A stretch of 64,000 nucleotides of DNA from a virus: the IMG/VR virus record IMGVR_UViG_3300005836_000015. One strand, written 5' to 3'. A program made the position numbers and the translations under genes. Below the pieces are notes generated by a model, which worked only from the letters and a program-made list of their open reading frames with translations, did no database searches and had not been told where the DNA came from. This document shows positions 3,363 through 38,443 of this stretch, in pieces. Within the stretch, counting starts at the first letter, position 1. Each line of letters opens with the position of its first letter.

Positions 3363-4139
3363 ATGCAGACAACGAGGCTAGCCTCCCAGGCGACTGCTCT
3401 TTCACGGCGGATCTTCGCATCGCTGCCGTGGGGCTATCGCCTGGCCCACCTGCTGACCAAGTTCGCGGTCGACACCCAAGAGGCGTTCGGCCGCTTCGCC
3501 TACGCCGAGTTCCTCAAGGCAGGGGTCGAGGGGCTCCCCGACATCGGGGGTCAGCCGGCGCTCTCCTTGAGGGACAAGATCCAGGGCCCGAGGGCGGCCG
3601 ACAAACTGCCCCGGGGGTACGGCCGGGACTTCGGGACGAAGGTCTGGAAAGTGGCCTTGGCGAAGTACCACAACCCGGAGATCGTCGAGGATGCGATCAG
3701 CCGGGTGATGATGAAGCTCGTGGCCGGGGATGCTCGGATCCGTGAGGGTTCCCCCCTGAAGGTCGCCGAGGGCTTCCTCATCACGGCGGTCCTCAACACG
3801 GCCACGGATCTCCTCCGGAAGAAGAAGTGGGAGAGCCCCTCGCTCGTTCGACGGGATGAAGAGAGCGGGGGCTACACGGAGATCGACATCACGGACCCCG
3901 GGGCCTTCAAGGATCTCGAGCACATGCTCCCCCGGTCCGAGATGATGAAGGTCATGCGGGACCTGAAGCAGGTCCACGATCGAGCTCCCTCGTGGGTCGA
4001 GGCCCAACTCGACGGCCTGTCGAACATCGAGATCGCCTCGGAGTGGGGCGTGAGCCCAGCAGCCGTGAGCCAGTGGGTCAAGAAGTACGAGCCCCAGATC
4101 GAAGCGGTCTTCAACAAGTACCTGCGCGCCGTCGCCTGA
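3363..4139 (+). CDS. RNA polymerase sigma factor (ECF-like)
   Basis: VEDAISRVMMKL...FLITAVLNTATDLLRKK (region 2) and LDGLSNIEIASEWGVSPAAVSQWV (region 4.2 HTH). Confidence 0.8.
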   Translation: MQTTRLASQATALSRRIFASLPWGYRLAHLLTKFAVDTQEAFGRFAYAEFLKAGVEGLPDIGGQPALSLRDKIQGPRAADKLPRGYGRDFGTKVWKVALAKYHNPEIVEDAISRVMMKLVAGDARIREGSPLKVAEGFLITAVLNTATDLLRKKKWESPSLVRRDEESGGYTEIDITDPGAFKDLEHMLPRSEMMKVMRDLKQVHDRAPSWVEAQLDGLSNIEIASEWGVSPAAVSQWVKKYEPQIEAVFNKYLRAVA

Positions 4140-4147
4140 GGAGTCCC

Positions 4148-4528
4148 ATGTCGCTTCGTCAAGCCGCCGAGGAGTTCGCGAACCTGGGGGTCAGCCGGCG
4201 GGTCGCCGCTCGGTACGCCGCCTCGTCGCTCAAGCCGCAGACCGAGGCGCTCATCAAGAAGATCGACGGGATCGATGCCGGGGCTCCGAAGAAGGAGATC
4301 CAGAAGTCGGTCAACGAGATCACCTCGTTCGGGCGCAAGCTGGAGAAGCAGCTCGAACAGCTCGACGGCAAGATGGACGGGAAGAAGCTGAACCGAGCGA
4401 TCGAACACGCCCAGGCGGTCTCGGCCTACGGCGACAACATCCTCCGGGACGCCGGGGACGCTGCGAAGGTCGACCGACACCTCGGCGGCGTCCAGACGGA
4501 GCTGAAGGAAGTCCTCAAGCTCCTGTGA
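4148..4528 (+). CDS. hypothetical protein with RVAARY motif
   Basis: ATG at 4148 after GAGGAG; helical 126-aa product. Confidence 0.65.
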   Translation: MSLRQAAEEFANLGVSRRVAARYAASSLKPQTEALIKKIDGIDAGAPKKEIQKSVNEITSFGRKLEKQLEQLDGKMDGKKLNRAIEHAQAVSAYGDNILRDAGDAAKVDRHLGGVQTELKEVLKLL

Positions 4529-4764
4529 GCGACCTCTTCCAGCGCCAGAAGGCCCTCCTGGACCAGTACCCGTACGAGTGGGTGCTCCTCATCGGCGACC
4601 AGCTCTTTGCCCACACGCCCGACGAGGCCATCATCTGGGACCTCTGGGACGCCGCCTGGAACGGCTGGAAGCAGGGACGGCCGGAGCCCATGGTCGTGCC
4701 CCCGCTGCCGAAACGAGGCGAGAAGCCCCCGCCGGTTCGTGGCCGGGGCGTCCGACCGGTGTAG
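4525..4764 (+). CDS. hypothetical protein
   Basis: 79-aa ORF; GTGA overlap with upstream stop. Confidence 0.6.
   Translation: MSDLFQRQKALLDQYPYEWVLLIGDQLFAHTPDEAIIWDLWDAAWNGWKQGRPEPMVVPPLPKRGEKPPPVRGRGVRPV
4756..4763 (+). promoter_or_regulatory. candidate phage promoter motif CCGGTGTA
   Basis: Recurring motif, 10 nt before the methyltransferase start. Confidence 0.55.
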
Positions 4765-6797: not shown

Positions 6798-7438
6798 GGC
6801 TCCAGGTCTTGTTGGTCCGGTGGTCGGTGACCCGATCATCCTGGGTACGGTAGGTCCTGATCTTGTCGCCCCTCATGCCGGTTCCGACCTGACCTCGACG
6901 AGCTGCATCTCGAGCCTCACGAGCTCTGCCTTCTTCGGCCTCGTTGAGTTTGGCGGCAAGGATCTGAAGGGCCACCGACCGGCTCTGGTGCTGCGAACGC
7001 ATGTCGACCCGGACCCTCAGCCCGGTCGGCTTGTGCGTGGCGACGACGCAGGAGTCGGTCTTGTTCCGATGTTGACCTCCGGGACCGCTCCCCCGAGTCG
7101 TCTGGATGTCCACGTCGGACTCGTTCAGACGGAAGCGGGTCGGAGCATCCGGATGGAGCACGGCAACCGTGACCGTCGAGGTCTGCATGCGACCCCGCTT
7201 CTCCGTGGGCGGGACGCGTTGAAAGCGATGCCCTCCGGCTTCGTCACGGAAGAGCCGCTTGGCGCCTTGGCCGGTGAACAGGACCGAGAGGAATCCCGGC
7301 CGTTCGTCTACGAGTTCCGAGTCAAAGACCCCTCCGCTCCGCAGCCTTCACAAAGGCCGAGCAGAGGTCCTGGACGAGGAGCTTTGCATCCTCGCCACCT
7401 TCCGCAGCACGGAATTCGATGACGACGGACTCGATCAT
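6766..7438 (-). CDS. class I peptide chain release factor-like protein (domains 2-4), +1 programmed frameshift
   Basis: Frame 0 (7438-7325) IEFRAAEGGEDAKLL; after +1 shift at CTT-TGA-C the frame is open to 6766 with GGHRFQRVPPTEKRGRMQTS, GSGPGGQHRNKTDS (GGQ) and IRTY; ATG overlaps the upstream stop (ATGA). Confidence 0.9.
7321..7335 (-). promoter_or_regulatory. prfB-type +1 frameshift cassette
   Basis: Minus strand GGAGG GGT CTT TGA C: internal SD 3 nt before CUU-UGA-C, as in bacterial prfB. Confidence 0.88.
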
Positions 7439-7758
7439 GCCCCCGAGCATAGCCGAGCCTTGGCCTTGTGGCCAAGTTTTTTGATCGCCCGCTCCCGTCG
7501 GATCGCATCGACCTGGCACATGGGGCCCTCGATGTAGGCGACGTCCCATGGCCTCCCGGTTCGGGTGAACTTCGCCCCGCCCGAGACCTCTCCGTTGTGC
7601 TTCCGGAGGCGCTCCTCGAGATCGACGGTCATCCCCGTGTAGAACTTGGGGAGAACGGGGCTCTTCAGGATGTAGACGAACCAGCGCACGTCTTCACTTG
7701 CAGAAGGCACAGGAAGTGTTCGCTTCCTGCCACTGGGACGAGCCCTCTTCGTAGCCAT
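7435..7758 (-). CDS. GIY-YIG nuclease family protein
   Basis: WFVYILKS...FYTGMTVDLEERLRKHN...GGAKFTR...E motifs. Confidence 0.9.
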   Translation of the reverse strand: MATKRARPSGRKRTLPVPSASEDVRWFVYILKSPVLPKFYTGMTVDLEERLRKHNGEVSGGAKFTRTGRPWDVAYIEGPMCQVDAIRRERAIKKLGHKAKARLCSGA

Positions 7759-8356
7759 CTCGAAGCCCGTGCCTGTAGAGCAAGACGTTCAGGCATCGTT
7801 CGCAGGAGGTTGCTGCGATGATGACGGCTCGCTCGAAGGGTTGCGGTACGATTGTGTGTCCCCTGACTTCGGCGACGTGGATCTCGTCAGGCGTCGGCCG
7901 GGTCATGGCGAGTACAAGGTCCACGGGGTAGCTCGACTCGCCCCGGAAAGCCTCCCTGCTTCCTCCGCCGGTCCACTCGACGGGCCAGGGTTCGCCGACC
8001 TTCTTGGTCTGGCTGCCTCCGCAGAAGCGGCAGATGCGTCCCTCGAGTCCCTCGATCAGGCCGTGGTCCTTCAGGATCTCGGGATGATCGCAGGCGTCTA
8101 CCTCCTCTTGGGAGATTAGCCTGAGCACGTTCTCCGTCAGTATTCGAGGGAAACGGCTGTGCTGGTACTTGAACCCCGGAGGTGGTGGAGGATCGAAAGG
8201 GTTGCCCTTGAGGTTGGGCTCCCACTTGTCTCCCTTCTCGTTCTCAAACCAGAGGGTCGGGAGGGGAACATTCAGGTTGATCGCAACCTTGTGCCCTCTC
8301 CTCTGCGGTAGAACTTGAGCAAGAAGGTAACGAAGGGCGACACGCCTGGGGCTCAC
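7694..8356 (-). CDS. hypothetical Cys-containing protein with RVALRY motif
   Basis: GTG at 8356 overlaps upstream TGA; CRFC, CERC, CAFC motifs. Confidence 0.65.
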   Translation of the reverse strand: MSPRRVALRYLLAQVLPQRRGHKVAINLNVPLPTLWFENEKGDKWEPNLKGNPFDPPPPPGFKYQHSRFPRILTENVLRLISQEEVDACDHPEILKDHGLIEGLEGRICRFCGGSQTKKVGEPWPVEWTGGGSREAFRGESSYPVDLVLAMTRPTPDEIHVAEVRGHTIVPQPFERAVIIAATSCERCLNVLLYRHGLRDGYEEGSSQWQEANTSCAFCK

Positions 8357-8979
8357 CACGTGAGGTCTCCTGCTAGCTTCTTCATCCGCAGGCGAGTGAC
8401 GACCCAAGGTCCGAAGGCGGTGGCAGCGAAGAGGCCCCCAGCCCAGCGTTTGGCGTCGTAGTCCGTCTGGGTCTTCATGGCCCGGTCACGCCGGCACTTG
8501 ATGTTGAAATCGGCAGCTTCGATCATCGCTTTGCCGTAGATACCCCAGGCGGGGGCGTGGGCCATGATCCAGACAGAGTAGTCGACGAAGCCCTCTTCGT
8601 AGAAGGGATCCCCCTCGGGGAAGGCGGCGAGGGAAGCGTGGATGAGCTCGTGGGTGATTTTCTCGAGCGTGATCCCGGGCTTGCCCGCCACGACCGAGGG
8701 GCTCAGCCGGATCTGGCCCGAACCGGGCTCGAAACTGGCGTTGGCTCCGGAGCAGTGAGCTCCGTCGGTGAGGGGAAGGATCGTGGGGAGGGGCTCGGTG
8801 GCGTAGGGCCCGAGGGCATGGGCGACGAAGGTGTAGCTGATGGTCGCCCACTGCTCGATGAAGCGGTCCCATTCGGATCCGCAGATGTTGCACGTGAAGC
8901 GACCCGAAGCGGTCCGCCGACGGCGAGAAGCCTCTTCGAAGAGTGCAGACACCTCATCCGGTAGCTTCAGCTTCGGCAT
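8353..8979 (-). CDS. putative zincin-like metallopeptidase
   Basis: ITHELIHASL (HEXXH) followed by downstream EEG. Confidence 0.65.
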   Translation of the reverse strand: MPKLKLPDEVSALFEEASRRRRTASGRFTCNICGSEWDRFIEQWATISYTFVAHALGPYATEPLPTILPLTDGAHCSGANASFEPGSGQIRLSPSVVAGKPGITLEKITHELIHASLAAFPEGDPFYEEGFVDYSVWIMAHAPAWGIYGKAMIEAADFNIKCRRDRAMKTQTDYDAKRWAGGLFAATAFGPWVVTRLRMKKLAGDLTW

Positions 8980-9026
8980 CACAGGGGAGGCGGCAAAAGA
9001 AGAAGTTCTTGTGCCCGACCCTGATC

Positions 9027-9692
9027 ATGCCGAACGAGATGCCGGGTGCCGGAGGGCAATTCATCCAGACCAACATGGGAACGCCCACCGTCGGGCTGAA
9101 CCAGGCAGCGAACTGGGGCGGCTCCTCGATGCAGCCGCACACGGTCGTCCCTCTTCTGCCCGGGCAGGTCTTCGGAACTCGAGGGACCGGAAAGACCAGC
9201 CTCGCAGCCGACCCCCGGTTTGGAGGGGGCTACCTCCTGAGCGGTACCCAGGGGACCATCGACCTCCTCGTGACGATGGGGGCGACAGGAGCCGCTCGAA
9301 CGATCTGCTACCTCACGGACGACTTGGTGACGCCGACCCGGTACATCGCCGTCAAGATGGACAACGCCAACAAGCCCTTCGCCAAGATCACGAACAACCT
9401 CGGGTCCGTCATCGGCGTGATGACCCCGGCTACTGCCGTCGGAGCCGGGCTGACGGCCTCGATCCGTCTGGCCTGGAATTCCCTGGGAGCCGTCGATGTT
9501 CTGAGCGGTCGTCATGCGAGCTTCCGCTTGAACCGGGAGATCGCAGCGGGTAGTACCTGGACGACGGATCCGACGGCCGACTGGGCCAGCTTCCAGCCCC
9601 ACTACCTCGTGTGCGGCGGTTTGCTCTTCGGGGACTCCGACTTCAACGGGAGCATCCTCTCCGTCCAGCTCTCGAACGTCGTGACCCCCTGA
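9027..9692 (+). CDS. hypothetical beta-rich protein (possibly structural or lectin-like)
   Basis: Gly/Thr-rich ORF; start chosen at MPNEM; family not recognised. Confidence 0.55.
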   Translation: MPNEMPGAGGQFIQTNMGTPTVGLNQAANWGGSSMQPHTVVPLLPGQVFGTRGTGKTSLAADPRFGGGYLLSGTQGTIDLLVTMGATGAARTICYLTDDLVTPTRYIAVKMDNANKPFAKITNNLGSVIGVMTPATAVGAGLTASIRLAWNSLGAVDVLSGRHASFRLNREIAAGSTWTTDPTADWASFQPHYLVCGGLLFGDSDFNGSILSVQLSNVVTP

Positions 9693-10145
9693 GATCCTCG
9701 ACGATTTTGGGGGTCGAAAGAAAAAGATCGATCGCGTGAACTTTTTCCCTTGCCTGTGCGTCGAAGGCGATGTACAGGAACAAGGCACGCTCGAAGAGAG
9801 CAACCGCAGGTACAGGGTGATGATTTCCTCAAGGCAGACGCAAACCAAATCGACGATGGGACCGATGGTCTCCACGTCGTGGTGCGTCCGTCATCTGGAA
9901 GCAGCGAAGCGCTTGGATTGCGCCTATCTTGCCATCCCCGTCACCACCTCCAGCCAGTTCGCCAATCCGGAGGTGGGTACCTAGGCGGCCTCAAGTTCAC
10001 CCGAGAGGGATCGAATGGAGGCCGCCCAGGGAAACCCAGGCGGCCTTCGGCGTTTCAGGGGTCCGTAGTCAAGGTACTCGGACCCGCGAGAGGAGTTGTG
10101 TTCCCTGCGCTCGTGAGCGCCACAGGAGACGTGTATCTGAAGTTT

Positions 10146-11717: not shown

Positions 11718-11791
11718 GGGCCCGTAGCTCAGTGGTTGAGCATCTCCCTGACGCGGAGAAGGTGAAGGTTCGATTCCTTCCGGGCCTACCA
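11718..11791 (+). tRNA. tRNA-Val(GAC)
   Basis: TCTCC-CT-GAC-GC-GGAGA, CCA. Confidence 0.92.
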
Positions 11792-11831: not shown

Positions 11832-11839
11832 CCGGTGTA
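11832..11839 (+). promoter_or_regulatory. candidate phage promoter motif CCGGTGTA
   Basis: Upstream of the vWA/ubiquitin-like operon. Confidence 0.55.
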
Positions 11840-11872: not shown

Positions 11873-13744
11873 ATGAAGATGGACCGTGAAAACCTGGGAC
11901 CGGCGGAGCGCATCATCCAGACGCTCCTCGCTTACTCCGACCACATGTACCACAACCGGCCGGGCATCGTGACCCAGGCCCCGGGCTCCGTCACGGGGGT
12001 CCTCTGGCAGCCGGCCGTCCGCAAGACCGAGAAGGTCGACGGGGCCGACAAGAACCACATCTACCAGCTCGCCAAGCAGGGGAAGAAGACGACGAAGACG
12101 CTCGTCGGAAGCCTCTGGCAGGACGGGACGGTTCGGACGGACGACCGCCGTAAGGTGGCCGAGTTCCGTGAGCCTGGCATCTTCCCCGAGGTTGCCTCCT
12201 GGTGCTACCAGCAGGTCGCCGAGGTCTGGAAGCTCGACAACGAGTTCGCAGCCCGCTGGGCGTCCTACGCCTTCGGGGACAAGTCGACGAGCCGGGACAT
12301 GAAGGTCGTTCTCGCGGCGTTCATGCTCTGCCAGTCTCGTCGGGGTGACCCGGTGAAGGAGAACGGCCAGGTGCTCTTCCTCGACGACGACTTCCGGAAC
12401 GTCGGGGAGGCGATGACGCTGCTTCCTGGTGGCTTCGACCTGAAGCTCCTGCTCCGGATCCGTGAGGTTCTGGAGCTCGAGACGGTGGCCAAGATCAACC
12501 GGGAGCTCGGCTTCGGCCGGTCGGCTCGGAAGGCTCACCTCGGTCGTTGGCCGGTCGTTGCGGCCAAGTGGCTGCGGTATCGGGAGCAGAACCCGAAGGT
12601 TCTCGACGGGCTCCTGAAGTCCGGGTTCCGCAAGTCGGTCATCAAGCTCTGCAAGGCGATCGGCTACAAGCCCACGACTCCGGAGGTCTTCCGGAAGCTC
12701 CGCTGGCAGCAGGCTCAGGCGGCCGATGGTCGTCGGGGCATCGCCATCGGAGAGAAGGTCGAGGCCGGGGAGACCTGGATCGGCCTGAAGGAGGAGCAGG
12801 TCTGCGAACGCATCCTCCGGGACAAGCCGACCTTCAAGCAGATCGTCGGCAAGCTCCCGGAAGGGCTCACGCGGGCCATCGTGGCGGCAGCCATCGAGGC
12901 TGGATCCTTCTCGGACAAGGACCTCATCATCTTCACGCCGACGCTCGAGGAACTGGGCCTGCTCAAGGTCCAGGACGTTCGGGAGCGGTGGGAGAAGGCG
13001 GTCCGGTCGGCCGAGGACCAGCGGGCGGCGAACATCGCCCGCAACGTCCAGTCGAAGGAGACGAAGGAGAAGCTCCAGGAGGGCGCCGACACCGCTGTCA
13101 AGGCGGCGGTGGAGGAGGTCATCAAGGGCATCCGGGTCTACTTCATGGTCGACATCTCGGCTTCGATGCAGGGTGCGATCGACGCGGCCAAGAGGTACAT
13201 CGGGAAGTTCCTCAGCGGCTTCCCGCCGGAGCAGATCCACATCTCTGTGTTCAACACGGGAGGCCGTGAGGTGACCCTCAAGCACGCTTCGGCGGCTGGG
13301 GTGGACCAGGCGTTCCGTGGGATCATGGCGGGTGGTGGAACCGACTACGGCGCCGGTGTTCGGGCGCTCCAGCACCACAAGCCGAAGGCAGACGAGGACG
13401 TGCTCTTCATCTTCGTCGGCGACGAGGAGGCGAACCCCTTCGTGGATGCTGTCCGTCTCTCGGGCCTCAACCCGATGGCGTTCGGCTTCCTCAAGGTTCG
13501 GAACTCGCCGAACTACTCGGCCGTCACCACGACGGCGGCTCAGCTCGGCATCCCGTGCTTCATGATCGACGAGAAGACGTTCGAGGACCCCTACGCTATC
13601 CCCAGGACGGTGAGGGCTCTCGTGGCGGCTACCCCCGTCGGCAAGGCGCACGCAGCGGCTCCGGTGGTCCGTGTTTCCCTCGTGGACACGATCATGAAGA
13701 CGGAGCTGCTCAAGAAGCCGGTCTGGGCAGACGCAGCAGCGTGA
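11873..13744 (+). CDS. vWA-domain protein with helical N-terminal domain (TROVE/Ro60-like architecture)
   Basis: C-terminal MIDAS VYFMVDISASMQG...GGGTD...FVGDEE; basic helical N-terminal region; GGAGG RBS before ATG 11873. vWA is firm; TROVE is inference. Confidence 0.75.
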   Translation: MKMDRENLGPAERIIQTLLAYSDHMYHNRPGIVTQAPGSVTGVLWQPAVRKTEKVDGADKNHIYQLAKQGKKTTKTLVGSLWQDGTVRTDDRRKVAEFREPGIFPEVASWCYQQVAEVWKLDNEFAARWASYAFGDKSTSRDMKVVLAAFMLCQSRRGDPVKENGQVLFLDDDFRNVGEAMTLLPGGFDLKLLLRIREVLELETVAKINRELGFGRSARKAHLGRWPVVAAKWLRYREQNPKVLDGLLKSGFRKSVIKLCKAIGYKPTTPEVFRKLRWQQAQAADGRRGIAIGEKVEAGETWIGLKEEQVCERILRDKPTFKQIVGKLPEGLTRAIVAAAIEAGSFSDKDLIIFTPTLEELGLLKVQDVRERWEKAVRSAEDQRAANIARNVQSKETKEKLQEGADTAVKAAVEEVIKGIRVYFMVDISASMQGAIDAAKRYIGKFLSGFPPEQIHISVFNTGGREVTLKHASAAGVDQAFRGIMAGGGTDYGAGVRALQHHKPKADEDVLFIFVGDEEANPFVDAVRLSGLNPMAFGFLKVRNSPNYSAVTTTAAQLGIPCFMIDEKTFEDPYAIPRTVRALVAATPVGKAHAAAPVVRVSLVDTIMKTELLKKPVWADAAA

Positions 13745-13752
13745 GGTGAACC

Positions 13753-14709
13753 ATGGGATGGAGGGATCTTCTTCAGACACAGGATGAGAGGGTGACCTCT
13801 CCTTGGGTCGGAGGAAGGTCCCTCCGCACCCAGGACCGAACGTGGACCATCGAAGGTCGTCTTCCTCAGGAGGTCGGCTGGTACACGTTCAAGCTCAACG
13901 GCCGCAAGGCAAGGGTCGACCGTCCGACGGAGCCCTCTCACGAGACCCTCGGGCACGTCGTGAAGGGCTACCTGGTCGGTGACCGGATCGTCCCGGATGG
14001 TGTTCGGATCGTCCCGAGCATCGCCCAGGTGGCTGGGGCCTCGGAAACGGTCCACCTCATCGAGCCCGGGCTCGATCGCTTCGTCCGTGTTGCGGCAGGT
14101 CGTCCTTTCGAGGAGGGTCCTCTCGTCTACATCGGGCAGGAGTTCCCGCTTGGCCCCGAAGAAGCAGTCCTTCAGGCGTACCTCGATGGGCTTCGTTCCG
14201 TCGGGCATGTTCAGGGGGTTGCTCCGGCCCTCGATGCGGCTTTCCGTATCGAGGTCTGGCAGAAGGTCGAAGCCGAACGTCGACGTCTCGAAGAAGAGCG
14301 TCGTCGTCGAGAGGAAGAAGAGCGCCTGGCTCAGGAAGAGCGTCGGCGTCAGATCGTCGAACGGCTCGGTGATGGCCAGGGTCGAAGGGAGATGGCTCTC
14401 GTCGACTTTGGGGAGGCAGCACGGGCGGCCCTCGCAGTTGGGGGTGCTACTTACCTCGACCATCGTCCTTCGGTTCGGCGGGGTGAGATGACCGTCCGGT
14501 TTCGGCTGGATGGTCGTCGATTCGAGTGCGTCTGTTCGCAGGCCCTTCGAATCATCGACGCCGGCATCTGTCTCACGGCGCACTACGACGACCCGGACTT
14601 CGAGGCGGGAACGAAGGGCGATGAGCTCTTCACGTTGGAGTCTCTCCCGGCGGTCATCCGTCAGGCGCAGGAAGAAGGAAAGCTTGTCGTGTTTCGGCAC
14701 GTCGACTAG
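13753..14709 (+). CDS. putative E2 (UBC-fold)-like protein
   Basis: C-terminal IDAGICL...FTLESLPAVIRQA parallels the E2 G-x-I-C-L active site and following helix; central Glu/Arg coiled coil; operon context. Confidence 0.5.
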   Translation: MGWRDLLQTQDERVTSPWVGGRSLRTQDRTWTIEGRLPQEVGWYTFKLNGRKARVDRPTEPSHETLGHVVKGYLVGDRIVPDGVRIVPSIAQVAGASETVHLIEPGLDRFVRVAAGRPFEEGPLVYIGQEFPLGPEEAVLQAYLDGLRSVGHVQGVAPALDAAFRIEVWQKVEAERRRLEEERRRREEEERLAQEERRRQIVERLGDGQGRREMALVDFGEAARAALAVGGATYLDHRPSVRRGEMTVRFRLDGRRFECVCSQALRIIDAGICLTAHYDDPDFEAGTKGDELFTLESLPAVIRQAQEEGKLVVFRHVD

Positions 14710-14717
14710 AGGAAACC

Positions 14718-14891
14718 ATGAAGGCGCAGGACAAGGACGAGACCTACCAGGGCATCGGCCGGAAGCGTCGGCGCCTCATGGTTCGCCTCTGGAAGGAAAG
14801 TGGAACGACCCTGAGCCTCAAGGCTTGGGCGAAGATGGCGGAGATCGGCGAGGTCGGCCACGTCTGGATCAACGCGAAGCGAGGTCTGTGA
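14718..14891 (+). CDS. small hypothetical protein (57 aa)
   Basis: GAGGA RBS, MKAQDKDE...AKRGL; TGA overlaps next ATG; absent from the ORF track. Confidence 0.55.
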   Translation: MKAQDKDETYQGIGRKRRRLMVRLWKESGTTLSLKAWAKMAEIGEVGHVWINAKRGL

Positions 14892-15262
14892 TGGAAGCCG
14901 GAGTTGTTCTCGATCTACAGGGTCAGCCGATCCACTGGCACCTGCCCCCGGGTCGAACTGCGGGGTCTCTTCCCGAGAGTCCCGACCTCTGGGATGTATT
15001 CTGGGGGAATCGGGACAATCTTTCGGGATTTGCTCACAGCCATCCCGGATCCGGTGTACCTGGTCCATCGTACACGGATGTCACGACGTTCGCCGCTGTC
15101 GAAGCGGGCCTCGGAGCTCGTCTCGACTGGTGGATCACGAGCAGCGATTCGGTTGCCCTCTTCCGTTGGAAGGGGCCCGATCGCCTGAGCTACCAACGAG
15201 AACCCTTGGCTTCGGTCCCCGCTTGGGTGACCGAGCTTCGTCGGGTCTCGAACCAGATGTAG
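14891..15262 (+). CDS. JAB/JAMM (MPN+) metallo-isopeptidase
   Basis: N-terminal Glu (MEAG) and AHSHPGSGVPGPSYTD = HxH...SxxD. Confidence 0.85.
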   Translation: MEAGVVLDLQGQPIHWHLPPGRTAGSLPESPDLWDVFWGNRDNLSGFAHSHPGSGVPGPSYTDVTTFAAVEAGLGARLDWWITSSDSVALFRWKGPDRLSYQREPLASVPAWVTELRRVSNQM

Positions 15263-15276
15263 AAAGGAGGCCGATC

Positions 15277-15543
15277 ATGGCCGAGGTCATCAGGGCCGAC
15301 GAGGCCCGTCTCAACATCACGTGGCAGCGCAACAACGGCGACCTCCCCGATCCGGTCTCCTTCGACGCAGCGGACGGGGACATCTTCCAGTGGGCGGCCG
15401 AGGCCGTTCGTGGGGGAGGGGTCCCGGGCATCCCGGCCGACCCTGGCGTCAACTTCCAGGACTTCGTGGTCCGTCGGTTCTCGGCCACGGCCGACAACCC
15501 GGTCAACCGGATCATGATCCACCCGAAGACGCCGTTCGGCTGA
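15277..15543 (+). CDS. ubiquitin-like (beta-grasp) protein with C-terminal Gly
   Basis: 88 aa, AGGAGG RBS, ends RIMIHPKTPFG-stop; lies between JAB and E1 genes. Confidence 0.7.
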   Translation: MAEVIRADEARLNITWQRNNGDLPDPVSFDAADGDIFQWAAEAVRGGGVPGIPADPGVNFQDFVVRRFSATADNPVNRIMIHPKTPFG

Positions 15544-15556
15544 ACTGGAGGTCACG

Positions 15557-16132
15557 ATGAAGACGATCGTCATCGTGGGCGTGGGAGCCCTCGGTTCTCA
15601 CGCCGTCCAGTTCCTCCGCAACGTCGAGGCGACGATCCGTGTGGTCGACTTCGATCGGGTCGAGCAGCGGAACGTCATGGCGCAGTTCCACGGCAAGCCG
15701 AGTGTCGGCAAGGCCAAGGTCCAGAGCCTCCAGCAGGCGATGGACTTCCTCTTCAAGAGGAAGGTCGAAGCGGTCCCTCACAAGCTCGTCGAGAACAACG
15801 CCAAGGAGCTCCTCGGCTCGGCCGATCTCGTGATCGACTGCCTCGACAACGGCGAAGGACGACGGGTCATCCAGAGCTTCGTTCGGAAGGCCAAGGTTCC
15901 GTGCCTGCATGGGGCCCTGGCAGCCGACGGAAGCTTCGGATCGGTCCTCTGGGACGAGCACTTCGTCATCGACGACGTGACCGGCACCGGCAAGACCTGC
16001 GAGGACGGGGAGCACCTCCCCTTCATCGGCATGGTCGCCGTTCTGCTGGCTCAGGCCGCCCAGGAGTTCCTGCTGCATGGTCGCCAGGAGGGCTTCAACG
16101 TCTTCCCGGGCGGCCTGGTGAAAATCGGCTGA
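15557..16132 (+). CDS. ThiF/MoeB/E1-like adenylyltransferase
   Basis: IVGVGALGS, DFDRVEQRN..Q, K.K, DCLDN...R; candidate catalytic Cys in KTCEDG. Confidence 0.92.
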   Translation: MKTIVIVGVGALGSHAVQFLRNVEATIRVVDFDRVEQRNVMAQFHGKPSVGKAKVQSLQQAMDFLFKRKVEAVPHKLVENNAKELLGSADLVIDCLDNGEGRRVIQSFVRKAKVPCLHGALAADGSFGSVLWDEHFVIDDVTGTGKTCEDGEHLPFIGMVAVLLAQAAQEFLLHGRQEGFNVFPGGLVKIG

Positions 16133-16165
16133 CGGCCGTCAGATTTTTCTTCCGGCGGCCGTTTT

Positions 16166-16173
16166 CCGGTGTA
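16166..16173 (+). promoter_or_regulatory. candidate phage promoter motif CCGGTGTA
   Basis: TTTTCCGGTGTATACAAT directly before the chimeric RNA cluster. Confidence 0.55.
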
Positions 16174-16395: not shown

Positions 16396-16506
16396 CTGGA
16401 CCTCACAAGCATCTAGCGGGTTCGACTCCCGTCTTCTCCGCAAGGAGATGAAGCCAAACGGTAAGGCACTCGTCTGCAACACGAGCATCTAGCAACCAAG
16501 GTCCAG
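16396..16506 (+). ncRNA. circularly permuted tRNA-Cys(GCA)-like RNA
   Basis: T arm, then CTTCTCC-GCAA-GGAGATG closed acceptor, D arm, CTCGT-CT-GCA-AC-ACGAG; closed by CTGGACCT/AGGTCCAG. Confidence 0.75.
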
Positions 16507-16529
16507 CCCCTCGGGTAGGTCGAAACTTT

Positions 16530-16667: not shown

Positions 16668-16789
16668 GGGCATCCAACCGAGCAGTTCGTACACGCAAGT
16701 AGCTCAATGTAGAGCAACGGCCTTGAACGCCGTGGGTTGTGGAGTCAAATCCACCTCGCACAAATCCGCACTGCCACCTCGGATGTCCC
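16668..16789 (+). ncRNA. Y-RNA-like element enclosing tRNA-Ser(TGA)-like arms
   Basis: GGGCATCC/GGATGTCC terminal helix, CCGAGCAGTTCGTACACGCA, D arm, ACGGC-CT-TGA-AC-GCCGT, degenerate T arm. Confidence 0.7.
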
Positions 16790-16971: not shown

Positions 16972-17057
16972 GCGGACGTGGCGGAATGGCAGACGCACTA
17001 GCTTGAGGTGCTAGCGGGTGAAAATCCCGTGGAGGTTCGAGTCCTCTCGTCCGCACC
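16972..17057 (+). tRNA. tRNA-Leu(GAG)
   Basis: Class II cloverleaf, CTAGC-TT-GAG-GT-GCTAG. Confidence 0.93.
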
Positions 17058-17226
17058 GATCGTCATCCATCTGAACAGATCATACACGCAAAATAGTGGG
17101 TTCGACTCCCACCTCCTCCACCGGGTCTTCGGACCTGAAAATGGGGGAGAAGCCCAACGGTAGGGCACCGGTACATGGAAACCGGCTCGAAAGAGCAACT
17201 CTGCTCTGTTTCCTCGGATGACGATC
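17058..17226 (+). ncRNA. Y-RNA-like element with circularly permuted tRNA body
   Basis: GATCGTCATCC/GGATGACGATC terminal helix, AACAGATCATACACGCA, T arm and CTCCTCC before GGGGGAG, D arm and anticodon-like arm. Confidence 0.75.
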
Positions 17227-19501: not shown

Positions 19502-19577
19502 TGCCCCTGGAGCCGAGATTCGCTTGGCGGGGCTCACAGCAGGACAGAGAAAGCGGGGTTGGCAACCCCACAAGACC

Positions 19578-20744
<1,167 letters not shown>

Positions 20745-33030: not shown

Positions 33031-33380
33031 GGGCCTGATCGGCTTCGACGTGGGAAGGAAGGCAAAGTCTGCGTGCTGGCGGCTCCTGCTCCGCCCTATC
33101 AAGCGGGACGTATTAGCTGCGAACGACAACGCATCCGCTGCTCCCGCCCTCGCGGCGGCCTGAGTGGCTGTTCGGCGGGAAGATCGTCCTGGTACCCGCC
33201 GGGCATCATCACGAGGGCTGGATCCCAGGCGTGCTCAACGGCCGAAGGGTCGAGACTCACAGGTGGGCTAGGTCGAGGCCGAATCCTCGAACTCAGCCCG
33301 AGGGGATACTCGGGCTACGCACGTGAACGAAGACTTGCTGGATAGCTCGCGGACCTGGGTTCGATTCCCAGCAGGTCCAC
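33031..33380 (+). ncRNA. ssrA: tmRNA (tag ANDNASAAPALAAA)
   Basis: GGGCCTG...TTCGAC 5' end, G3:U acceptor with CAGGTCCA 3' end and T arm; resume GCG at 33119, tag ends TGA at 33163. Confidence 0.95.
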
Positions 33381-36741: not shown

Positions 36742-37032
36742 ATGTCTGGGGACATCCGCTTCGCCAACATCAGCATCGTCAGCATCTCGGATGATCTGAT
36801 CGCCCGGGTTGCTCGTCGGACAAGACGGTCCATCGATGAGGTTCGTGCCTACCTCAAGACGGACCAGCAGGATGACGAGCTCCTTCGGGCGTTCTTGTTC
36901 TTTGGGGTCGGACCCAGGAACAAGCGGTTCACCAGGACCGAAATCGAGGTGCTGTTGGCCGACGAGTCTGGGCGCGAGCCCCTCGGCTACAGGATCTTCA
37001 CAAATCGCAAGGACTTCGAGAGCAACAGGTAA
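36742..37032 (+). CDS. hypothetical protein
   Basis: 96 aa; CCGGTGTA at 36724. Confidence 0.55.
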   Translation: MSGDIRFANISIVSISDDLIARVARRTRRSIDEVRAYLKTDQQDDELLRAFLFFGVGPRNKRFTRTEIEVLLADESGREPLGYRIFTNRKDFESNR

Positions 37033-37036
37033 CGTC

Positions 37037-38443
37037 ATGTCCCTCAAGTACGCTGCGTCGAAGGTCGAAGAAGGTCACTACGTCCTGCCGAAGGTCGGGA
37101 CGATGAAGGTCGAGGCTCACGCCTTCCTCTCGGACGAGCTGTACGCCTCTTCCGAGGAGAACTTCTGGGATCAGCTCTCCAACGGGGCGAGTTACGAGGG
37201 CATCATCGGCGCCTATGCCATGCCCGATTGCCACGTCGGGTTCGGTGTCCCGGTCGGGGTCGTCCTGGTGACCGAAGACACGATCATCCAGGCGGGGAGC
37301 GGCTACGACATCTCCTGCGGGGTGATCTACATGAAGGTCCCGGGTCTGACGGCGACAGGAATCAAGAGCTGGTACAAGCGTGAGACCTGGGTCCGTGAGG
37401 TCGAGAAGCGGATCGCTACGGGAATGGGCTCGGAACGGCCGAGCCTCATGCCGAAGTTCAAGTCCGGGCAGGCCGACGAGATCCTTCGCCATGGGGCCAA
37501 GGCCCTCGGCGTTTCGGCCGACCTTTGCGAGCGCCAGTACATCCCGGTGCCCGAGGGCATGGATTTCAAGAAAATCGACAAGGCATACGACAAGGTGATC
37601 CCGCAGCTCGGCTCGGTCGGCGGGGGCAACCACTTCGTCGAGATGCAGGTCGACGAGAAGACCGGTGAGGTCTACGTCATGGTCCACTGCGGCAGCCGAG
37701 GCTACGGCTGGCAGACGGCGAACCACTTCTTCTTCGAAGGGGCGAAACTCCGGGGACTCCCGTCGAACCGCCGGGAAGACTCCTGGCTCCGGATCGACGA
37801 GCCTCTCGGAAAGGAGTACTGGGCCTACCACAACTCCGCTGCGAACTTCGCCGTCGCCAACCGCCACATCATCGTTCGCGGCATCCAAGAGGCCCTGGAA
37901 AAGGTTTTCAGCGTTCAGGGCGAGGTCTACTACGAGATCAGCCACAATCTCGTCCAGGAGGAAACGCTGGTCCTTCCAGATGGGACATCCAAGAAGGGCT
38001 TCGTCCACCGGAAGGGAGCGACGAGGGCCTTCCCGGCGGGGCATCCCGACCTCAAGGGGACCGTCTGGGAGAAGACCGGGCATCCGTGTCTCATCCCGGG
38101 GTCGATGTACCACGGGGCGGCCATCCTCTTCGCCGGAGAGAATGCCTACAAGTCCGCCTGCTCGGTCAACCACGGGTCGGGTCGGATCATGGCTCGGGGT
38201 GCCGCCAAGAAGAAGCTGGGCCACAAGCAGGCCGAGATCGACGGCGAGATGAAGGAGGTCCAGCGTGAGCTGGGCGGCGTTCGGGTCGATGGCATCGTGG
38301 GCAACCACAAGCACACGCCCCTCGACGAGTGCGCTCATGTCTACAAGGACCTGGACGAGGTGCTCGGTGTACTGGAGTCGACGGGCATTGCCCGGGTGGC
38401 CCATCGCCTCTGGCCCGTGGCCAACCTGAAGGGAACCGAATGA
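37037..38443 (+). CDS. rtcB: RNA ligase RtcB
   Basis: MPDCHVGFGVPVG, GYDISCG, GSVGGGNHFVE, HCGSRG, HRKGAT, IPGSM, HGSGR. Confidence 0.96.
   Translation: MSLKYAASKVEEGHYVLPKVGTMKVEAHAFLSDELYASSEENFWDQLSNGASYEGIIGAYAMPDCHVGFGVPVGVVLVTEDTIIQAGSGYDISCGVIYMKVPGLTATGIKSWYKRETWVREVEKRIATGMGSERPSLMPKFKSGQADEILRHGAKALGVSADLCERQYIPVPEGMDFKKIDKAYDKVIPQLGSVGGGNHFVEMQVDEKTGEVYVMVHCGSRGYGWQTANHFFFEGAKLRGLPSNRREDSWLRIDEPLGKEYWAYHNSAANFAVANRHIIVRGIQEALEKVFSVQGEVYYEISHNLVQEETLVLPDGTSKKGFVHRKGATRAFPAGHPDLKGTVWEKTGHPCLIPGSMYHGAAILFAGENAYKSACSVNHGSGRIMARGAAKKKLGHKQAEIDGEMKEVQRELGGVRVDGIVGNHKHTPLDECAHVYKDLDEVLGVLESTGIARVAHRLWPVANLKGTE

Follow-up and report, generated by a model that had tools for sequence, protein, structure and literature searches.

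A conserved gene module built around a ubiquitin-like protein and a minimal E1-like enzyme in huge phages and bacteria

Prokaryotic ubiquitin-like (Ubl) systems are known as sulfur carriers, as protein modifiers that work without an E2 (conjugating) enzyme and, more recently, as antiphage defences, represented by Bil, the cyclic-oligonucleotide-based antiphage signalling system (CBASS) and Bub. The subject here is an operon at positions 11873-16132 of the IMG/VR virus record IMGVR_UViG_3300005836_000015, a stretch of 64,000 nucleotides called the window below. The operon is a local copy of a widespread module of four to five genes in a fixed order, encoding a vWA protein, a 318-amino-acid protein with one invariant cysteine (the Cys protein), an optional JAB/JAMM metallopeptidase, a Ubl and an E1-like adenylyltransferase. 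No description of this gene set was found in the literature searched, among which were reviews that compare jumbo phages or prokaryotic Ubl systems. We read it, with a probability of roughly 45%, as a Ubl activation and transfer module in which the Cys protein would serve as a carrier outside the UBC fold and translation or RNA machinery would be the target.

Among described systems, archaeal SAMP1-3/UbaA/HvJAMM1 and Thermus TtuB/TtuC resemble the module in pairing a beta-grasp protein with a C-terminal Gly, a single ThiF/MoeB-type E1 and a JAMM peptidase, and in lacking an E2 that can be recognised. In contrast to the Ubl of the module, SAMPs and TtuB, like Urm1, terminate in Gly-Gly, and the Ubls of both systems double as sulfur carriers; these systems also have no fixed vWA or invariant-Cys partner. 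Their E1s span about 250-270 residues, whereas the module E1 has 191 and no aligned counterpart of the Zn-binding CxxC pair. Bil (BilABCD) and CBASS Cap2/Cap3 share with the module the set of Ubl, Cys protein, JAB and E1, and the module E1 is related to Cap2. However, BilB and the E2 domain of Cap2 have the UBC fold and the 318-residue protein does not detectably have it, PADLOC models match none of the other four module proteins, and the module always carries a vWA protein with a metal ion-dependent adhesion site (MIDAS), shows linkage to tRNA arrays and occurs frequently in huge phages.

The Atg8/Atg7/Atg3 and Ufm1/Uba5/Ufc1 systems offer a different likeness. Their modifiers, like the Ubl here (Phe-Gly), end in a lone Gly after a hydrophobic residue, exposed by the removal of zero to a few residues, and their E1 Cys lies within the adenylation domain, with no separate Cys domain. 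UBA5 is among the sequence matches of the module E1 in the PDB (4e-4). The E2s of these systems lack the HPN motif. Unlike them, the 318-residue protein has no sequence or structure match to Atg3, Atg10 or Ufc1, and the trimming enzyme of the module is a JAMM metalloprotease rather than a Cys protease. Finally, CysO/Mec+/MoeZ and QbsE/QbsD/QbsC combine a ThiF/MoeB-like E1 with a JAMM peptidase that trims a beta-grasp carrier back to its terminal Gly, but their operons also encode a sulfur-accepting enzyme (CysM, thioquinolobactin enzymes), which is absent here and at the related loci checked. The make-up of the module differs from these systems: a 191-residue E1, a Phe-Gly Ubl, an optional JAMM peptidase, a MIDAS-vWA protein and an OB/coiled-coil protein that has a single invariant Cys.

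A sequence-only reading of the window had pointed to six co-oriented, tightly spaced genes within a tRNA array, and the list of open reading frames (ORFs) bears this out: six + strand ORFs occupy 11873-16132, separated by gaps of 8, 8, 14 and 13 nt and coupled once by a 1-nt overlap (TGATG). An E1, a JAMM peptidase and a beta-grasp Ubl with a conserved C-terminal Gly stand in one operon. Conservation of the gene neighbourhood, which that reading had proposed as a check, is pronounced. Every locus retrieved, more than 30 in phages and bacteria, some of them from a search of genome contigs with a 12-sequence alignment, has the order vWA, Cys protein, (JAB), Ubl and E1, with Cys protein identities of 27-84%. 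JAB is missing from six loci, which leaves the vWA protein, the Cys protein, the Ubl and the E1 as the core.

The E1-like adenylyltransferase (15557..16132, +; 191 aa) is the most readily classified component. It matches Pfam ThiF at 1.5e-25 (90 bits, the cut-off being 28), the NCBIfam ThiF model TIGR02356 at 1.5e-20, the NCBIfam model of SAMP-activating E1s (270 positions) at 1.9e-16, the E1 part of the PADLOC Cap2 E1-E2 models at 5e-16 and, in the PDB sequence search, Escherichia coli MoeB (1jw9) at 1.9e-11. A search with it returned 2,401 proteins at E-values up to 1e-20. The features of the ThiF superfamily are present, namely a Rossmann-type ATP-binding domain, the Lys and Mg-binding Asp, and a crossover-loop Cys. 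Across 42 homologues, the GxGxxG motif (G8, G10, G13), D31, K54, D94/D97 and T147-C148 are invariant, and T147-C148 is kept in distant homologues too. In the adenylation site, 'vgkakv' aligns over 'vgqpkv' of MoeB and 'lvidcldn' over 'lvldctdn', and the Cys148 segment 'g.ktc.edg' aligns over 'ltc.veag'. The enzyme is about 60 residues shorter than MoeB. The Cys of KTCEDG, which the sequence-only reading had singled out as a candidate catalytic residue, is Cys148, and its invariance and position suggest that it is probably the putative Ubl-carrying crossover-loop Cys, as in ThiF and Uba5.

The 88-residue protein (15277..15543, +) is predicted to adopt a beta-grasp fold, as expected of a Ubl, and it ends in ...RPKTPFG immediately before the stop codon. 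G88 and P83 are invariant in 44 homologues and F87 is kept in 90% or more. The terminus is thus Pro-Phe-Gly, not the Gly-Gly of the ubiquitin, ThiS, MoaD and SAMP type. Beyond the conserved Gly, homologues have nothing, one variable residue, short tails or extra domains (0-131 residues). Ubl genes with C-terminal extensions of 55-131 residues lie at 3875-4543 of locus L008, 13808-14308 of L001 and 6304-6801 of L021; a precomputed Pfam label, Phage_T4_Y07B, exists for L008.

Directly upstream of the Ubl gene lies that of the JAB/JAMM metallopeptidase (14891..15262, +; 123 aa). Its catalytic motif, noticed earlier as HSH...SYTD, is real: the E...HxH...S..D signature is intact, and none of E2, H49, H51, S60 and D63 varies among 9 homologues. 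Pfam Prok-JAB scores this protein at 0.014 (15.7 bits, below the 25-bit cut-off) and the homologue in locus L002 at 1.3e-4, and a precomputed, unmarked match exists for L006. Where JAB is missing, the Ubl gene stops exactly at the Gly (6/6 loci); where JAB is present, a tail of 1-131 residues follows the Gly in 19/26 (Fisher p = 0.002, kinship among loci ignored). Because the presence of JAB and the tails co-vary, the JAMM peptidase fits the role of an enzyme that would expose the Ubl Gly.

The 318-residue Cys protein (13753..14709, +) is new and is not demonstrably an E2. Its AlphaFold2 model (predicted local distance difference test score, pLDDT, 94.1) contains two OB-like barrels (residues ~11-139), a 49-residue helix (158-206) and a C-terminal alpha/beta domain (~213-312), in which H219-229, E233-239, E245-252, E255-262, E266-269, C273, a long loop and H298-307 follow one another. 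Cys273 lies in the DAGICL segment that the sequence-only reading had likened to an E2 active site. The residue itself has held up well: within the motif [AS]G[IV]CL, all of 75 homologues have it, as does each locus in which this stretch of the gene is undamaged. It is retained even in the 30%-identical homologue of a 595-kb phage, whose N-terminal half is unmatched by the family profile. A second conserved Cys, C259, was considered as a pair partner and rejected because several loci lack it.

At E-values up to 0.001, the Cys protein has over 1,300 homologues. Neither the single sequence nor a profile gave a match in Pfam, PHROG, NCBIfam, PADLOC or the PDB sequences, and its model has no significant named match in Foldseek searches of PDB, BFVD, AFDB clusters, AFDB Swiss-Prot and the ESM Atlas or in two VIA searches. 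The matches that do appear are uncharacterised AFDB proteins (4e-12) and weak OB and cold-shock ones; the N-terminal half resembles the OB/cold-shock domains that stand in tandem in RNase II/R and in translation factors. An ESM Atlas feature search gave no usable match for the C-terminal domain. The invariant Cys sits in the loop that follows strand four of an alpha plus four-strand sheet, as in E2s, a resemblance in layout only. This predicted position is compatible with an E2-like role but does not demonstrate UBC homology. Invariant or near-invariant His and Asn residues are absent from the family alignment, and with them any HPN motif.

The first gene of the operon encodes a 623-residue protein (11873..13744, +) with an unassigned N-terminal domain of ~410 residues followed by a C-terminal vWA domain (Pfam VWA_2 4.9e-6, residues 422-514). 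Its MIDAS (DxSxS...T...D) is intact, and D427, S429, S431, T490 and D517 are invariant in 7 homologues. The earlier description of this protein as vWA/TROVE-like stands for its vWA half. The Pfam TROVE hidden Markov model (HMM) does not match the protein, nor does it score above its cut-off anywhere in three phage records or five genomes with homologues, a scan in which positive controls were detected. When the N-terminal 415 residues were compared by hhalign with eight Myxococcota TROVE proteins, the result (P = 0.28) fell within the range of shuffles; a full-length hhalign signal (P 0.004) was rejected because it came from the shared vWA start and was gone once the vWA domain was removed. 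In language-model features, TROVE clusters are among the nearest families of the 623-residue protein (0.90-0.93), which is a lead only. The bacterial Ro60/Rsr-Y RNA-RtcB loci are alike in having a large protein with a terminal MIDAS-vWA domain beside tRNA-like RNAs, and RtcB is encoded in the same window; they are unlike it in that TROVE is undetected here and that the YrlA-like (Y RNA-like) Rfam match reaches 25.6 bits against a gathering score of 69.

The module occurs in both phages and bacteria. Phage carriers include a complete 412-kb IMG/VR phage with terminal repeats and the 595-kb uncultured phage, whose copy is strongly diverged, and further copies were found in several ENA, JGI and Logan contigs. 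Among GenBank phage records, the Cys protein is found in the metagenome-assembled virus Rctr197k (KX853510.1, locus L001) only, where the five module genes extend across 9.5 kb with unrelated genes interspersed. In that record (6926-8917 and 8845-9867), the Cys protein homologue is unannotated, a coding sequence having been called on the opposite strand, and the vWA homologue is entered just as a misc_feature. Homing endonucleases (LAGLIDADG, HNH) interrupt some phage modules and leave the gene order unchanged. In the 412-kb phage (L002; 873-2144 on the - strand and 7970-8986 on the + strand), a LAGLIDADG gene stands between Ubl and E1 and a gene for a Tad3-like Thoeris inhibitor lies 1.6 kb upstream of the module; in another phage, an HNH gene (L006 8185-8649, - strand) is inserted in the module.

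On the bacterial side, the module is present in 25 GTDB species genomes, mainly Myxococcota/Polyangiaceae and Verrucomicrobiota assemblies. A 1.28-Mb Verrucomicrobiales contig carries it among ordinary chromosomal genes of the Planctomycetota-Verrucomicrobiota-Chlamydiota type, with DUF1501, PSCyt2/PSD1 and glucose/sorbosone dehydrogenase genes, a transposase and 13 tRNAs nearby, so the module is not confined to phages. It may be mobile. About 14 of the 22 module loci of at least 9 kb have tRNA genes within 7 kb. In a Polyangiaceae contig, the gene directly upstream of the module (L017 3555-4940) encodes an EF-Tu that is 78% identical to the EF-Tu paralogue of the window (19524-20744), and the two have the same letters in the proposed switch I region. 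This likeness suggests that a variant EF-Tu may accompany the module and its tRNA arrays.

Gene order, motifs, predicted folds and conservation are the basis on which we infer every chemical step, and the target, of the mechanism proposed here. The JAMM peptidase would cut off the residues beyond the C-terminal Gly of the Ubl. In the window phage, it would more likely strip conjugates because the Ubl gene there already ends at the Gly. The E1 would adenylate the Gly and then probably hold the Ubl as a thioester on Cys148, like Uba5 and Atg7. The Ubl would next be handed to Cys273 of the 318-residue protein, which would act as an E2 analogue; UBC-fold homology is not demonstrated for it. The Ubl would end on a target, for which the MIDAS-vWA protein may be the receptor, or which it may itself be. 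Translation or RNA machinery is more likely to be this target than a host Bil-type defence because the module accompanies tRNA arrays and a variant EF-Tu and occurs in bacteria. A more specific and rather speculative extension, which we think unlikely, is that the 318-residue protein is a non-UBC Ubl carrier with RNA-binding OB domains and that the module couples tagging to tRNAs or tRNA-like RNAs. RNA would then select a translation factor to be tagged, or an amine of RNA or aminoacyl-tRNA would be the acceptor.

Several results weigh against a transfer module with a non-UBC carrier. No UQ_con, Prok-E2, RWD or UEV match was obtained from 75 members of the Cys protein family at E-values up to 10, and no E2 structure was returned for its model by Foldseek against PDB, two VIA searches, AFDB clusters or AFDB Swiss-Prot. 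By sequence, the E1 lies nearer to ThiF and MoeB, both activators of sulfur carriers, than to E1s of the Cap2 or Uba type, and no conjugate, thioester or target has been observed. After the structure searches and the 75-member Pfam scan, the earlier proposal that the 318-residue protein is an E2 with a UBC fold is likewise unsupported. Prok-E2_B is found in 0/201 Myxococcota genomes and in none of the control genomes either, and a complex prediction of E1, Ubl and the 318-residue protein scored 0.00, which counts neither for nor against an interaction.

If the Cys protein is no carrier, the E1-activated Ubl could pass directly to target lysines, as in the SAMP/UbaA/HvJAMM1, Thermus TtuB/TtuC and Urm1/Uba4 systems. 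The 318-residue and vWA proteins would then be targets or structural partners, for instance in an RNA-protein particle, and Cys273 would have a structural or redox role. The undetected E2 fold or family, the match of the E1 to the SAMP-activating model, the likeness of the N-terminal half of the 318-residue protein to the OB/cold-shock domains of RNase II/R and translation factors, and the link to tRNA arrays all favour such E2-independent conjugation. We nevertheless regard it as improbable: a lone invariant Cys that is retained despite divergence elsewhere looks like a catalytic or carrier residue, and the Ubl ends in Phe-Gly, not in the Gly-Gly of SAMPs, TtuB and Urm1. Sulfur transfer is an alternative of similarly low likelihood. 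Here, the E1 would adenylate the Ubl to allow thiocarboxylate formation, Cys273 and/or Cys148 would relay a persulfide, and the sulfur would go to a thionucleoside of the neighbouring tRNAs or to another metabolite. The best matches of the E1 are to ThiF and MoeB, its Cys148 segment aligns with that of MoeB, JAMM peptidases are known to trim sulfur carriers in CysO/Mec+ and QbsE/QbsD, and the module has a tRNA-array setting. However, the Phe-Gly terminus and the fusion of some Ubl genes to C-terminal domains of 55-131 residues fit this reading poorly, and we know of no MIDAS-vWA partner in sulfur transfer. The expected partners are also missing: among the called, Pfam-labelled neighbours of four loci and of L002, no PP-loop ATPase, rhodanese, cysteine desulfurase, ThiG, MoaE or CysM was seen (the scan of the remaining loci covered just the five proteins of the module). 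Likewise, the sequence-only reading was right that no thiamine or molybdenum cofactor genes accompany the operon, and none were seen in related loci.

That reading had gone further and inferred a phage-specific cascade of E1, E2, Ubl and JAB that is homologous to Bil or CBASS Cap2/Cap3 and could tag host defence proteins or jam host Bil-type systems. Superficially, the parts list of Ubl, Cys protein, JAB and E1 is like that of Bil, the E1 matches the E1 part of the Cap2 models, and the 412-kb phage has its anti-Thoeris gene close to the module. Such a cascade is nonetheless very improbable because the module has bacterial copies, in the 1.28-Mb Verrucomicrobiales contig and in many Myxococcota assemblies, because JAB is dispensable in six loci and because the constant vWA gene and tRNA arrays would be needless for a Bil decoy. 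The lack of a detectable E2 and of PADLOC matches for the Ubl, JAB, vWA and 318-residue proteins points the same way. Taken as a whole, the earlier interpretation is partly supported: its operon parts hold, and its E2 part does not. A Ubl module with a non-UBC Cys carrier remains the reading that we favour.

The sequence-only reading had also placed the operon behind a single CCGGTGTA motif. A copy does lie at 11832..11839 (+), 34 nt upstream of the first operon gene, but the window holds 13 copies where 0.71 would be expected. The + strand has 12 of the 13, and one copy lies at 15051 inside the JAB gene and another at 16166 just 3' of the operon. Other sites include 405, 4756, 31016 and 36724. 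The motif is a candidate phage promoter element. Shine-Dalgarno-like sequences (GAGG/AGGAGG/GGAGG) precede the inspected starts, those of the 57-residue ORF, JAB, Ubl and E1. At the E1 stop codon, and overlapping it, is a terminator-like hairpin with a T-run (16126..16142, +). It is no more than a consensus match, of which the region has 4 with 3.5 expected.

The remaining ORF of the operon (14718..14891, +; 57 aa) has a weak helix-turn-helix (HTH) match, to the HTH of the Pfam Phage_terminase small subunit (0.0049, under the cut-off). It was rejected as a conserved component: BLASTP found no homologue in other loci, where the same slot holds differing small ORFs or none. Being unconserved, it is probably accessory or not a gene.

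The operon is preceded by a tRNA-Val gene (11718-11791), and the next tRNA called by ARAGORN begins at 16972. Just 3' of the E1 gene, Rfam matches tRNA-like elements that ARAGORN missed (24.5 and 43.9 bits, one at 16693-16762); together with the weak YrlA match, the stretches concerned are 16444-16511, 16693-16762 and 17094-17166. Five copies of YACACGCA lie within 1.27 kb 3' of the E1 stop codon. The window as a whole is part of a large phage-type genome, with 46 tRNAs, a transfer-messenger RNA (tmRNA), RtcB, GroEL, ribonucleotide reductase, an NAD-dependent DNA ligase, a UvsX-like recombinase and the EF-Tu paralogue, and its nearest GenBank relative is Rctr197k. The RtcB RNA ligase gene (36809-38443; PHROG 2.4e-66) and the tmRNA (33031-33380) lie downstream of the tRNA array. 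Company of the RtcB/tmRNA type is typical of bacterial Ro60-type loci.

Since bacterial copies of the module stand beside tRNA gene arrays, it is probably linked with translation and not a weapon of phages alone. It may connect protein tagging with the translation apparatus that huge phages carry. If the module conjugates its Ubl, it would be a compact system, amenable to experiment, whose Ubl carrier may be of a new kind. Should tagging also be coupled to tRNAs or tRNA-like RNAs, the module would represent an RNA-linked ubiquitin-like system common to huge phages, Myxococcota and Verrucomicrobiota.

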